The notes under the pieces are model-generated. The model saw only the letters and a list, made by a program, of their open reading frames with translations. It was not told the origin of the DNA and searched no databases. Both the position numbers and the translations under genes were made by a program. A DNA stretch of 64,000 nucleotides from Octopus vulgaris (Eukaryota). The stretch is taken from positions 1,798,001-1,862,000 of the forward strand of contig OX597820.1 in the NCBI GenBank assembly GCA_951406725.2, read 5' to 3'. Each line of letters begins with the position of its first letter. The stretch's first letter is position 1. This document shows, piece by piece, positions 2,813 to 45,000 of the stretch.

Positions 2813-2893
2813 AATTACACGTGCTTCGTGGCTATATTTTCAAATTGATAATAATAAAATCAATTCTATTTAAACATAGTCACTTATCAGATC
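2813..2893 (-). ncRNA. Degenerate hammerhead-like motif (long stem II)
   Basis: Minus strand: gat-CTGATAA-GTGACTATGTTT...AAATATAGCCAC-GAAG-CACGT-GTA-att. Two core lesions (G8A, A15.1G). Confidence 0.5.
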
Positions 2894-3099
2894 TAAGAAA
2901 AAAAAAATAAATAAATGTACATATATTATCTTATAAGAAAATATAAATATATATAAAAATACGTAATTTTTCAATAAAAAATCGAACAAAATTTAACAAT
3001 ATATCTTAAAATAAAAACATGAAATATCTTATTGAATATATTCTGTTAACTAAATCTTTAAACTTAATACGTAGGACTTAGTGTTTATAATAGATTTAT

Positions 3100-3355
3100 C
3101 TCGTTATGTTTTGTTTTATGTTTTCTCATGCATATAGTTGCATATCTAGACATGCTCATATATATTTGAATTATAAACTTCTGGAAAGTTTTACAGATTT
3201 TAATAGTTCCAGTGATGGACTAGATCTTTAGACTTCGAATTAGCCTTCTCCTTTCTGAGAAGCCTAATTTCTCAAGATTGGTATTTAGACAGTGTGTTAC
3301 ATATCCCAGATATCCAATAATTACAGGTATAAACTTGTAATCTGGATGGAGTACC
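3100..3355 (-). mobile_element. 3' end of an RLE-type (R4-like) LINE
   Basis: Minus translation ...YKFIPVIIGYLGYVTHCLNTNLEKLGF...ITGTIKICKTF resembles the IPIIVGALG C-terminus of the LINE at 63696-63935. Confidence 0.55.
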
Positions 3356-3359
3356 GCCG

Positions 3360-3895
3360 GGGGAGGTCACGAAGCAAATAGAAGAGACGGGCTATAAGAA
3401 CTTGGGGATATTGGAAATGGATAAATTGATGGAGAAAGAAATGACAGAAAAATTTAAGGTGGAGTACTTGCGCAGACTGACACTGATCCTTAAGTCGAAA
3501 TTAAACAGACGGAATAAGATGGAAGCTATTAACTCCTGGGCGGTTTCACGCGTTAGATATGGGGCAGAGTTAATCGCATGGGCAGCAGGCGAACTAAACA
3601 GTTTAGATAAAAAGACAAGGAAGTTGCTGACTAGATATGAAATACTCCACTCAAAAAGTGACACAGACAGACTGTATGTACCAAGAAAAAGAAGGGATGC
3701 AAACTCATCATTAGAGCATGGTTTGTAATAAAATCCACAGAACCGCTATTATTGGAAGTAAGAAGGTCAGGCTTATGTAAGATGGAAGATTGCAAAGTTA
3801 AAGCACTGTACAAGCATTTGAAAATGAATGAAACTAAAAATAAGTGGAGAAAGAAAAGAATGCATGGACAATTTCATAGGGATGTTGAAGATAAG
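3360..3895 (+). mobile_element. R4/Dong-clade LINE internal fragment
   Basis: YKNLGILE...EYLRRLTLILKSKLN..NKMEAINSWAV...RLYVPRK...MHGQF is homologous to the post-RT region of the element at 61630-63935. Confidence 0.8.
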
Positions 3896-40346: not shown

Positions 40347-43300
40347 GTATATATATATATATATATATATACATATGGGCGGGGGAGGGCTTTGTACCTG
40401 CGTTTGTCCCCCACCATCGCTTGAGAGCCGGTGTTTACACCGTCATAACTTAATAGTTCGGCAAAAGACACTGATAAAATAAGTACTAGGCATAAAATTC
40501 TTGCAGACGGTGCCCCAGCATGACCGCAGTCTAATGACTGAAAGAAGCAAAAACAAAAGAAAGAAGTAACTGAATTAGTTGCTGTTATTGTTTAATTGTC
40601 GGTCATTCCTGGTTGAGTAAAATCTATGGTCAAAGGCGTTCCAGAAGTGATCATCTCTTTTGCTTTAAGGGCAGGGCATCCAGGACCACATTAACCAACG
40701 TGTTCTTCTCTAAGGCTGTGATTTGAAAGGATTCGACTTCTATTTTTAGCGGGCTGAACGACTCATTGTTGACTCTTCCGCGGACTGCGAGTTCAAAGAG
40801 GAGAATATAGAGAGAAAGAAAGAAAGATTATGAATAGAGAGAGAAACAGCAACCGGGCGGGGAGGAAGGGGGGAAGCCTCCTCACTGGGAACGTGTTTAT
40901 GTGAGTGACTGTAAGTGCATGTGTGTGTGTGTTTGTGTATGTTAGCGGTGTGTGTGTGTGTGTGCGTTTGTGTGTGTGTGTGACTGTGTGTTTGCGCGTG
41001 CGCATACGTAAGTGTATGTGTGTGTTTGTGTGTGTGTATGTGTGTGTGTTTGTGTGTGTGTGTGTGTATGTGTGTGTGTGTGTGTTTGTGTGTGTGTTTG
41101 TGTGTGTGTATGTGTGTATGTGTGTCTCTGTGTGTGTGTGTCTGTGTGTCTCTGTGTGTGTGTGTGTCTGTGTGTGTGTCTGTGTGTCTCTGTGTGTGTG
41201 TGTGTCTGTGTGTGTGTGTCTGTGCGTGTGTAAACGCATCTGTGTCTGGATAAGACAAAACGAATGAATTATATCTTTTCATTTTTCTTAGTTGTTTCAG
41301 GCATTAGACTGCGGCCATACTGCAGCATCGTCTTGCAAAATCGTTTAGTCGAGTGAATCAAGCGCAGTACTTGTTTTTCTTTTCTGAGGTCTGCTACATA
41401 TTATATCGGGATTTTTTGCCGAACCGCTCAGTTATGGGGACGTAAAAATATCAACACCGGTTGTCCAACGGTAGTGAGGAACACACAAACACACACAAAC
41501 ACACATACACACACACACACACACACAAACACACACATGTACACATAAACACACGCAAACGCACACATAAACAAACACACACAAACAAACACAACCAAAC
41601 AAACGCACACACAAACACACATAAACACACACACACACACACTTACACAAACACACACACATACACACACGCACACACACACGCACACACACACGCACAC
41701 ACACACACATATATGTATATGAAACACCCACTTTTCAATGCTCAGACCAGACAGATTTTGTACAGCCGGATGCTTCTCCCGCCGCCAACACTCTCTTGTT
41801 TGCAATTAAGGTAATATTTCTCCATAGCCAGGCATGATTACCTGGAAGACTGGAAGCAAAGAACAGCCTTTGTGCGAGAGGAACACTCGCTTACAACTAT
41901 AACCCAGTGTCGAGGAAAGGGGACAAGAAAGCACACACACACACACACACTGCTACGCACTTTGCTCGGCGTACTAACGGTGCTGCCTGTTCGCAACTAA
42001 TAACCGTTTCTACTGGAGTCACAAGGCCCGAAATTTGTGCGACGGGGGCCAGTCGATTTCCTCAACCCTAGCGTCTCACTGGTACTTAGTTTATCAACCC
42101 TGAATGGTTGAAAGGGAAAGTCGACCTCGGCGAAATTTGAACTCAGAACGTAAAGACATACGAAATGCCGCTAAACATCATTTCGCCTGGCGTGCTAAAG
42201 ATTCTGCCAGCTCGCCGACATAATAATAAGAATCTCATGATAAGTAACCGTCTGAAAGTCTGAATATAATTGATTGAGAGAGAGAGAGAGAGAGAGAGAG
42301 AGAGAGAGAGAGAGAGAGAGAGAGAGAGAGAGAGAGAGAGAATGACAATATAATTAAAACATTAATAACAAGGAAGAAAATTAACAAAATAAATATTGTG
42401 TATTTGAAACTATGGCAACGTCAGGTTAATGAAAGTCTTATGAGGTGAGCTGTTCGAGGTTCATGACTAGGAACGTCTGTTCATGGCTGCTGCCTTCACA
42501 GTACAAACGACTGTTACTCAGCCAATTGTACTTACGTGTTTACACAGAGCTGAATAACACGGCTTTTGTTGACCATCATGGATGGTTGTTGGCGAACAAA
42601 CCCTTAACTCTTTGACCTATTCTTCTCCACTTTACTCTCTCTCCCTCTCTCGCTAGCTCTCTCTCCTCCCTCTCCCTCTCCCTCACACACACACACACAC
42701 ACACGCATCTACACACACACACAAACACACACTTAACCTCAAAACTTCACATTTGTTCCGCGACACAGAAACAGCATTCTCTTCTATTTACAAACTCGAT
42801 GTCTTCCACCATTGTCTGGTAACAAGTTTACTTCCCAACCACATGATCCTGGGTTCAGTCCCACTGTGTGGCACCCTGGGCAAGTGTCTCCTTCTATAGC
42901 CTCGGGCAGGCCAAAGCATAATGAGTGGATTTGGTAGACGGAAACTGAAAGAAACTCGTCGGGTATATATATATATATATATATGTGTGTGTGTGTGTGT
43001 GTGTGTGTGTGTGTGTGTGTGTGTGTGTGTGTGTGTGTGTGTGTGTGTGTGTGTGTGTGTGTGCGTGTGTTGTGTTCTTGAGCAAGACACTTTATTTCAC
43101 GCTGCTCCAGTTCACTCATCTGTAGGAATGGGTTGCGATGTCAATGGCGCCAAGCTGTATCGTTCCCTCTGCCTTTCCTTTGGATAACATCGGTGGTGTG
43201 GAGAGGAGAGGCTGGTGTGCTTGGGCGACAGCTGGTCTTCCATAAACTACTTTGTCTGGAATTGTGCCACAGAGGGAAACATTCAAGGTGCAGTCCCATG

Positions 43301-43586
43301 GCCATTCAGGAACGAAGGGGGTCTTCACCCTTGGCCCTATACACACATGTAATAGTCAGACCATGAAGTATATAAGAACGAAAACAACATCAGACCGTAT
43401 AAGGGAAAACACTTCAAAGACACTGCTGTATTATGTGCATGTGTGTATGTATGTGTGTGTGTATGTATGTATGTATGTATGTATGTACGTATGTATACCT
43501 AGGTGCATAATATATACATATGTATATATGGGCATGCACACACACATATACACAGATATATTTGGGTGCGTATGTGTGTGTGTGTA

Positions 43587-43963
43587 TTGGATTGGAAGCA
43601 CTCCGTCGGTTACGACGACGAGGATTCCGGTTGATCCGAATCAACGGAACAGCCTGCTCGTGAAATTAACGTGTAAGTGGCTGAGCACTCCACAGACACG
43701 TGCACCCTTAACGTAGTTCTCGGGGATATTCAGCGTGACACAGAGAGTGACAAGGCCGGCCCTTTTCAAATACAGGTACAACAGAAACAGGAAGTAAGAG
43801 TGAGAGAAAGTTGTGGTGAAAGAGTACAGCAGGGATCACCACCATCCCCTGCCGGAGCCTCGTGGAGCTTTAGGTGTTTTCGCTCAATAAACACTCAGAA
43901 CGTCCGGTCGGGGAATCGAAACCGCGATTCCGCTGCCCTAACCACTGGGCCATTGCGCCTCCA
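43587..43963 (-). mobile_element. tRNA-derived SINE, near full length
   Basis: Minus strand begins TGGAGGCGCAATGGCCCAGTGGTTAGG...GGTTTCGATTCCCC; its 3' part is shared with 1180-1270. Confidence 0.8.
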
Positions 43964-44403
43964 CGTGTGTGTATTAGTACAGATGTAAAAACCATTGTTT
44001 CGCATATATGAATGTTTTTAAGCTAAAACAGGGCAAGTATGCAGGTCAGTCATTTCACCCGGTATTACAATATTTCCCACAGGAAGAAGAGATCACCAAA
44101 CAACGCCATTTTTTTCATGGTTTCCTGAATAAGGGGGTTTAGCCCCCAAATAATGAAATACAAGATCGACCTGTATTATTTGTGTAACTTCAAAAATATA
44201 TTAAAACACACACACACACACACACACACACACACACACACACACACCACACACACACGGTATTTTCTCACGGCGAAAATTATCGCTGTAGTCAAACAGG
44301 TGTAAGCACGCCAAGTCAGCTTGAAGCATCTCCTAACAAGTGAAACAAATTTGTGTATACACACGTGCGCGCACACACACACAGACATATATATATATAT
44401 ATA

Positions 44404-45000
44404 ATCAACAAATAAGGGTGAGAAAATTGGATACTAATTTAATAGTACATCCATTTAACACCAAGTGGCTTTGTGCATAAAAACCCGGAATACGATAAAT
44501 TTTATACATAAATATAAGAGAGTAACCACTGTGTGGTCGACTCTAGCACTAAAAATAGATCCGCTAGGTTTCAGCCCCAAGTGCGGTTCAGTCGATTGCA
44601 CTCGCTGTTATAATTCAAGTGCCCCTGTCACGGCCCGCCAAAATTCACGGAAACAGATACTACATCCAAAATTAAATTATAACAGCGAGTGCAATCGACT
44701 GAACCGCTCGCGTGTTTGTCGTTATGGCAAAATCTAGCGTGCGGTTGAATAAATTGTATTCTGGACGGGTTCGGCTGAAGAGCTACAGATATGTTGTGTG
44801 AGTAAAATTACATAATTTATTAATAGCGAAACAATTGTCCTGAACTAATCTGCATTTTTGTTATTTTTATTTGCCCTGTTCGTTTACGCTAGTAGTCGTG
44901 CTAACTTTCATCGGAAACAATTCTTTGTGGTTGAAACCTAGCGGATCTATTTTTAGTGCTAGAGTCGACCACATAGTGGTTACTCTCTTATATTTATGTA
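44404..45000 (+). mobile_element. Non-coding hammerhead-bearing PLE-type insert with nested inverted repeats in (TA)n
   Basis: Inverted repeats 44503-44580 / 44925-45002 and 44583-44615 / 44675-44707; (TA)n on both sides. Confidence 0.75.
44768..44846 (+). ncRNA. Canonical type-I hammerhead ribozyme motif
   Basis: GGTTCGG-CTGAAGA(44775-81)-GCTA...TAGC-GAAA(44828-31)-CAATT-GTC-CTGAACT; 7-bp stem I (2 G-U), palindromic stem III ACAATTGT; predicted cut after 44839. Confidence 0.85.

Follow-up and report, generated by a model that had tools for sequence, protein, structure and literature searches.

Our data indicate that the hammerhead-shaped motifs scattered through a 64,000-nucleotide stretch of the Octopus vulgaris genome (contig OX597820.1 of assembly GCA_951406725.2, positions 1,798,001 to 1,862,000; hereafter the window, with coordinates counted from its first letter) are very probably type I hammerhead ribozyme folds in the 3' terminal repeats of Penelope-like elements (PLEs). 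They fall into about nine families, five of which are joined to Penelope-like reverse transcriptase (RT) or endonuclease (EN) sequence, with most copies likely being inert, 5'-truncated stubs. A first-pass annotation of this DNA had claimed such motifs from several Penelope-type families at 13 sites. Direct reading of the sequence combined with family searches finds a hammerhead-shaped, multi-copy motif at all 13, and the nine dispersed repeat families, five of them connected to PLE coding sequence, bear out the assignment to several families.

The nine family queries gave 650–2,132 first-look candidates each, of which 40 per query were scored. By majority, families C, D, E, F, G and H share the canonical core (CUGANGA ... 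GAAA ... UH) in type I stem order, family F being weak in stem I and family E in stem II; family I carries a U3–A8 core, family B a G3–C8 core and family A the core CUGUNGA. Positions 3 and 8 form a Watson–Crick pair in every family, i.e. C–G in A and C–H, G–C in B and U–A in I, and eight families have an A at core position 6, family A alone departing from this rule. Stem II regions span 46–85 nt in several families, and families F and H are related. All nine have a narrow shared 3' end downstream of the motif and a highly variable 5' extent. At this 3' end, (TA)5 occurs within 60 nt in 13/16 loci of family A (16 of 30 copies could be anchored), 11/28 of B, 22/29 of C, 19/25 of D, 15/25 of E, 11/23 of F, 14/28 of G, 12/24 of H and 4/17 of I, against a background of 6.1%. 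The microsatellite bias of insertion that had been proposed is thus evident, and so are the proposed inverted segments, since 56 of 245 loci have upstream inverted mates (0/25 in family H).

Within the window, eight of the 13 site copies retain the majority core of their family (10646, 26154 and 44768 on the forward strand; 11079, 13115, 19401, 26453 and 38884 on the reverse strand), and five are decayed (2813, 11250, 26088, 27907 and 32218). Family A is represented by two intact A6U motifs at 11079..11116 (−; core CUGUUGA) and 26453..26488 (−), and by a decayed one (C15.2U, G17) at 27907..27943 (−), inside the 3' end of a coding element. Family B contributes a G3–C8 motif at 11250..11299 (−), the stem II of which is broken by decay, as well as a pair consisting of 26154..26197 (+), with the G3–C8 core GUGAACA and the palindrome AAUAUU, and its inverted arm at 26088..26138 (−), with a C8G change private to that copy; the inversion junction cuts stem I of the 26154 motif to 3 bp. 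The family C motif at 10646..10755 (+), which has a canonical core, a stem II region of 85 nt and ACAGCUGU as its palindrome, sits in an AT-rich insert at 9368..10963 (+), for which neither a long open reading frame (ORF) nor a coding partner was found. Family D is present at 13115..13194 (−), with a canonical core and a long stem II; this motif forms the 3' terminus in a PLE family of Hydra-like type. The family E motif at 19401..19451 (−) combines a canonical core with a hairpin stem III and a weak stem II with a U–U at its base, and its insert extends upstream to an endonuclease-end fragment near 22190–22380. Canonical cores are also found in family F at 38881..38982 (−; long stem II, palindrome ACGUACGU, only two contiguous pairs in stem I) and in family G at 44768..44846 (+; 7-bp stem I, palindrome ACAAUUGU, inverted arm at 44503–44618). 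Family H, by majority canonical with an 8-nt palindrome, is seen at 2813..2895 (−) as a copy with a long stem II and the changes G8A and A15.1G, with a partial inverted arm at 2353–2471. Finally, what had been taken for a half motif at 32218–32290 is really a whole U3–A8 motif of family I at 32253..32291 (+), decayed by G5A and with an inverted arm to 32397.

Three traits ascribed to most or many of these sites hold in part. Stem III at 19401 is a hairpin rather than a plain palindrome; the description as short non-coding inserts fails for families C, E and F (1.2–3 kb) and for 27907, where the motif terminates a coding element of 3.4 kb on its 3' side; and fold-back arms were seen at four sites (families H, B, I and G), but not at those of C and F or at 26453. 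Two further observations concern sites beyond those 13, namely the 3' half of a family D2 motif at 22371–22440 (+) and a possible hammerhead at 47105–47160 (−), likewise in decay, that contains GAAACCGGU and has a short stem II.

The connection to PLEs comes from coding sequence, for which 20 long loci were examined in addition to the window. The coding element in the window, at 27860..31250 (−), is a 3.4-kb Neptune-like PLE, 5'-truncated (its 5' end is lost at a GATA repeat) and frameshifted, with an RT (YIDD, weakly matched by RVT_1), a Cys linker, a GIY-YIG endonuclease at the C terminus and the family A motif at its 3' end; the same order of RT/EN body and family A motif recurs in the loci L002, L017 and L312. 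A PLE-type RT with a GIY-YIG endonuclease at the C terminus lies upstream of the motif and on the same strand in families A, D and I. In a family D locus (L329), RT and endonuclease are found between inverted motifs, and in one of family I (L337), remnants of RT, Cys linker and endonuclease are located upstream. Families E and F have only an endonuclease, in both with a CxCx5C linker; that of F occurs upstream in a longer copy. A direct arrangement of two pseudo-long terminal repeats (pLTRs) around the ORF was seen neither in the window element nor in the 20 long loci. Pfam gives mostly no match to the partner proteins; the weak matches obtained (RVT_1 with E 8e-6, GIY-YIG with E 0.004) both fall below the curated cut-off.

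By their protein motifs and hammerhead style, families D, E and F match the Hydra clade. This clade is described as (TA)n-inserting and hammerhead-bearing, with the CxCx5C linker as its mark (Craig 2021, PMC8557442; here and below, comparisons refer to parts of the papers cited). Its marks are distributed over the three families, with the linker in E and F and CxxC/CxH around conserved E and N residues in D and F, while CCHH is not found. Further likenesses are the short element of family D (about 3 kb), the (TA)n insertion, an 8-nt or hairpin stem III and the U before GAA, which together with an ACAG/CUGU stem III also stands in the motif table of that paper; by eye, the family D RT resembles the octopus element Hydra-1_Obim. 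Different from the published members are the longer stem II inserts of D and F, and membership follows from motifs alone. Families A and I, which have Neptune-type linkers, appear Neptune-like or perhaps Nematis-like; from known Neptune elements they differ by the A6U core of A and the U3–A8 core with a U–U of I. Two other origins considered for family I were discarded: a Naiad origin is ruled out because the endonuclease remnants lie C-terminal to the RT, and a permuted, type-SGC arrangement (S-G-C block order with pseudoknots) does not apply, as the sequence reads as an ordinary type I U3–A8 motif.

Family A deserves separate treatment. A whole-genome search with its U6 pattern yielded 22,806 matches as compared with 4 for the reversed control, and within the same exact 30-base context U6 was found 14,944 times and A6 158 times. 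A second base at ≥25% is confined to positions 7 and 17 among the 28 compared in 20 copies, and these two positions alone also vary at ≥10% in contigs from four sequencing runs that carry four organism labels. All four bases occur at position 7, and 19 of the 20 copies have A or U at position 17; in the hammerhead consensus, it is these two core positions that are free. A sister family with a canonical A6 and the same stems gave 4,869 matches, i.e. the U6 family outnumbers it about 4.7 to 1, with slightly different search patterns. Since this sister has the same stems and a published Acropora digitifera Neptune motif is closely similar, sharing the 3' strand of stem II as well as stem III (PMC4209133 supplement), the register of family A is fixed; alternative registers (U3 with a variable position 4) fail in stem I. 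Family A is likely a slow hammerhead with a fold still under selection. Copies of the sister were seen at L249:1717, L184:1233 and L199:582, and an RT 66% identical to that of the window element is located near the sister motif in L184/L334.

Family B has 4,729 genome matches (0 for the control pattern), with G3–C8 in 96 of the first 100 matches and a loop II that varies between subfamilies. The 3–8 pair is kept in families B (G3–C8) and I (U3–A8), which would be expected to cut either normally or more slowly. In the literature covered, G3–C8 occurs only as an engineered double mutant, and no natural A6U or G3–C8 hammerhead family was found there (a coverage that does not include Lunse 2017, the key paper on variants) or in the rows covered of the PMC4209133 supplement. 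One literature match for A6U concerns twister rather than hammerhead. A single-copy metagenome match (L366:151–179) has U6 in an otherwise coral-Neptune-like motif; as this single copy could reflect a point mutation, no weight is given to it. In a random sample of the genome (L137, L140, L285, L288, L289 and L314), at least three more U3–A8 hammerhead families were noticed.

The results on covariation in the stems diverge. In an alignment of families F and H with the locus L304, six of 15 pairs differ at both partners, three distinct 8-nt palindromes being among the changes, and the covariation score of 0.289 (shuffled 0.187 ± 0.026) was reached in none of 500 shuffles. Several results weigh in the opposite direction. 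The structure scored in this alignment was drawn from those same sequences; none of the 13 aligned pairs is changed on both sides between the D subfamilies, and within family A no compensatory change in stem II was found. The motif of family A does not vary significantly less than its flank (2/28 versus 8/43 positions, p = 0.30), a comparison in which the anchor favours the motif. Monomer folding energy is below that of shuffles (z under −2) in only four of 11 motifs, and the computed homodimers of A, B and E are unpaired through stem III, with those of C, D, F and G being paired. On the coding side, clade names depend on motifs recognized by eye and not on a tree, family B has only one possible same-strand endonuclease, about 2.3 kb upstream, and no coding partner was found for C (in three long loci) or for G and H (two each).

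There is an alternative which we regard as plausible without favouring it: families C, G and H, and perhaps B and E, could be true non-autonomous elements that borrow PLE proteins. In family C, copies share a body of 2.6 kb in which no clear ORF is seen, with 2.1–2.7 kb common to three long copies and devoid of RT/EN similarity, and family E holds only an endonuclease fragment plus long low-complexity DNA. Moreover, C, E and G are young, their top matches being 98–99% identical, and a preprint (10.64898/2026.07.22.740005) argues, in the part considered, that animal retrozymes derive from PLE ends. Yet only two to three long loci per family were covered, and the copies are dispersed and 5'-ragged, being neither of unit length nor in tandem.

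A second alternative, specific to family A and in our view possible though rather doubtful, is that its motif no longer cuts and that U6 instead closes a rod with the GAAACG strand, the fold being kept for some other task, for instance binding of the element's protein or positioning of reverse transcription. When two intact A copies are folded as monomers by prediction, U4–N7 pairs with the GAAACG strand in such a rod using U6. This rod, together with the lack of stem III pairing in the computed A homodimer, makes a non-cutting state of family A conceivable. Changes at A6 lower activity (A6C cuts at less than 0.1 per min; PMC3088659), hammerhead mutants of an anole PLE did not affect insertion in vitro (PMC11167929), and the U6 family is the more numerous of the two sisters. 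Against this, the rod requires a U at position 7, where all four bases occur, and the fixation of all other core positions, with exactly 7 and 17 varying and the latter almost always A or U, would be expected if a cleavage-type core were still selected.

A third reading, in which the motifs would belong to non-LTR retrozymes propagated in tandem arrays by way of circular RNA, is very improbable. The genome does contain a retrozyme-like array of another family, with a repeat unit of about 359 bp and five canonical-core copies on one strand plus two inverted ones (L346:2300–4550, from G000:C1:20000001–20010000). Published non-LTR retrozymes (PMC7229834) are alike in being animal genome repeats with a type I hammerhead; they consist of 150–450 bp tandem non-coding units, whereas the window families are dispersed, 5'-truncated and often inverted. 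Over the nine families, 12 of 245 loci have a mate on the same strand within 1.5 kb, or only 0–5 of 25–30 loci per family; none of the nine is mainly tandem, and coding PLE sequence is attached to five. The 'retrozyme-like' option of the first-pass annotation hence finds no support, and the families are better understood as mostly 5'-truncated PLE ends.

Least of all do chance matches in AT-rich, repetitive DNA, a practically negligible explanation, account for the motifs: a first, looser descriptor was not discriminating, with three matches in the window and 0.97, i.e. about one, per shuffled window, but the final descriptor (U4, G5 and A9 fixed, positions 3, 6, 7 and 8 free, stems required) found six motifs in the window as against a mean of 0.2 (maximum 2) in 100 local dinucleotide shuffles, and the whole-genome patterns of A and B are hardly ever matched by their controls. 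The shuffle check that had been proposed came out in the same way in a sample of the 2.8-Gb assembly (100 10-kb stretches at round coordinates, 1.0 Mb in total), with 37 motifs, seven of them from one array, as compared with 3.1 in 10 shuffles. In 34 of the 37, positions 3 and 8 form a Watson–Crick pair (25 C–G, 7 U–A, 1 G–C and 1 A–U), even though the descriptor did not require one. Motif density in the window is about 2.5 times that of the sample, and a rough extrapolation from the latter puts the genome-wide number of intact-looking motifs at around 10^5. This descriptor was written because an Rfam scan of the window showed no hammerhead among the matches listed (150 of 163), which otherwise comprised tRNA-like sequence and microsatellite-driven miRNA noise; the scan is in line with the earlier suggestion that standard models would miss non-standard cores. 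The window itself is rich in microsatellites.

The hammerheads most similar to those described here are the ones in the pLTRs of metazoan PLEs (PMC4209133). That work and PMC8557442 have already described solo motifs in thousands per genome, motifs in inverted pairs, cores of the U3–A8 type and targeting of (TA)n. Shared with the octopus families are the type I fold with an extra base after A9, a stem III that is palindromic, the presence of many families in one genome, the predominance of solo copies, their occurrence in inverted pairs and U3–A8 cores as in family I here. Different are the U6 of family A, the G3–C8 of family B and the long stem II regions of several families, as well as copy number, with 22,806 for one family here and about 2,000–9,000 per genome there. 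Among natural core variants (PMC3088659), U3–A8 covariation, a U10.1–U11.1 mismatch and a low-activity A6C have parallels in the octopus families; that A6C, however, was a single phage sequence, whereas A6U is fixed across an abundant family. A recent annotation of octopus repeats mentions Penelope-like elements and, in the part considered, no ribozymes.

How such a landscape may have arisen can be proposed from published PLE biology (PMC4209133, PMC6765202, PMC8557442, PMC11167929). The GIY-YIG endonuclease of the element would nick AT-rich or (TA)n DNA, and the RT would copy the RNA from near its 3' end, usually stopping early and often adding an inverted piece. With a start near the 3' end and an early stop, it is the hammerhead-bearing end that would survive. 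Self-cleavage of the window families is a prediction from sequence, and PLE hammerheads are reported to cut poorly. In a transcript of a tandem pLTR–ORF–pLTR arrangement, two motifs may pair via their palindromic stem III and cut slowly after position 17, with the element's protein probably helping; cutting would need either two motifs paired in this way or assistance by that protein. In a solo or head-to-head stub, by contrast, each transcript would contain a single motif in sense orientation, and cutting would be rare.

The window also harbours features unrelated to hammerheads. A host coding exon with a galactose-3-O-sulfotransferase domain lies at 56765–57874 (+; E 1e-61), and other mobile elements are represented by a RT of the long interspersed nuclear element (LINE) type at 61466–63365 (+), a probable further LINE fragment at 3300–3900, which adjoins a 223-nt inverted repeat at 3837–4496, and a mariner-type transposase fragment at 54999–55739 (+). 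In addition, there is a tRNA-like sequence at 16351–16422 (−; 72.8 bits in Rfam) and a region of diverged 28-bp tandem repeats at 32775–34620.

To a specialist, hammerhead-bearing PLE stubs in TA repeats would be no surprise, but the A6U and G3–C8 families could be. A6U, G3–C8 and U3–A8, each fixed in a whole successful family, represent natural variants for which a canonical sister can serve as a control. The change A6U should cripple cutting, yet family A, with over 22,000 core-matching copies the most abundant hammerhead family found in this genome, outnumbers its canonical sister and keeps every other core base. We tentatively consider, as a minority possibility, that selection then acts on the hammerhead of PLEs as a fold bound by protein that cuts slowly or not at all. 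If this were true, the natural pair of U6 and A6 sister families, to which family B adds a natural G3–C8 core, would be a ready test of whether PLE ribozymes must cleave at all.

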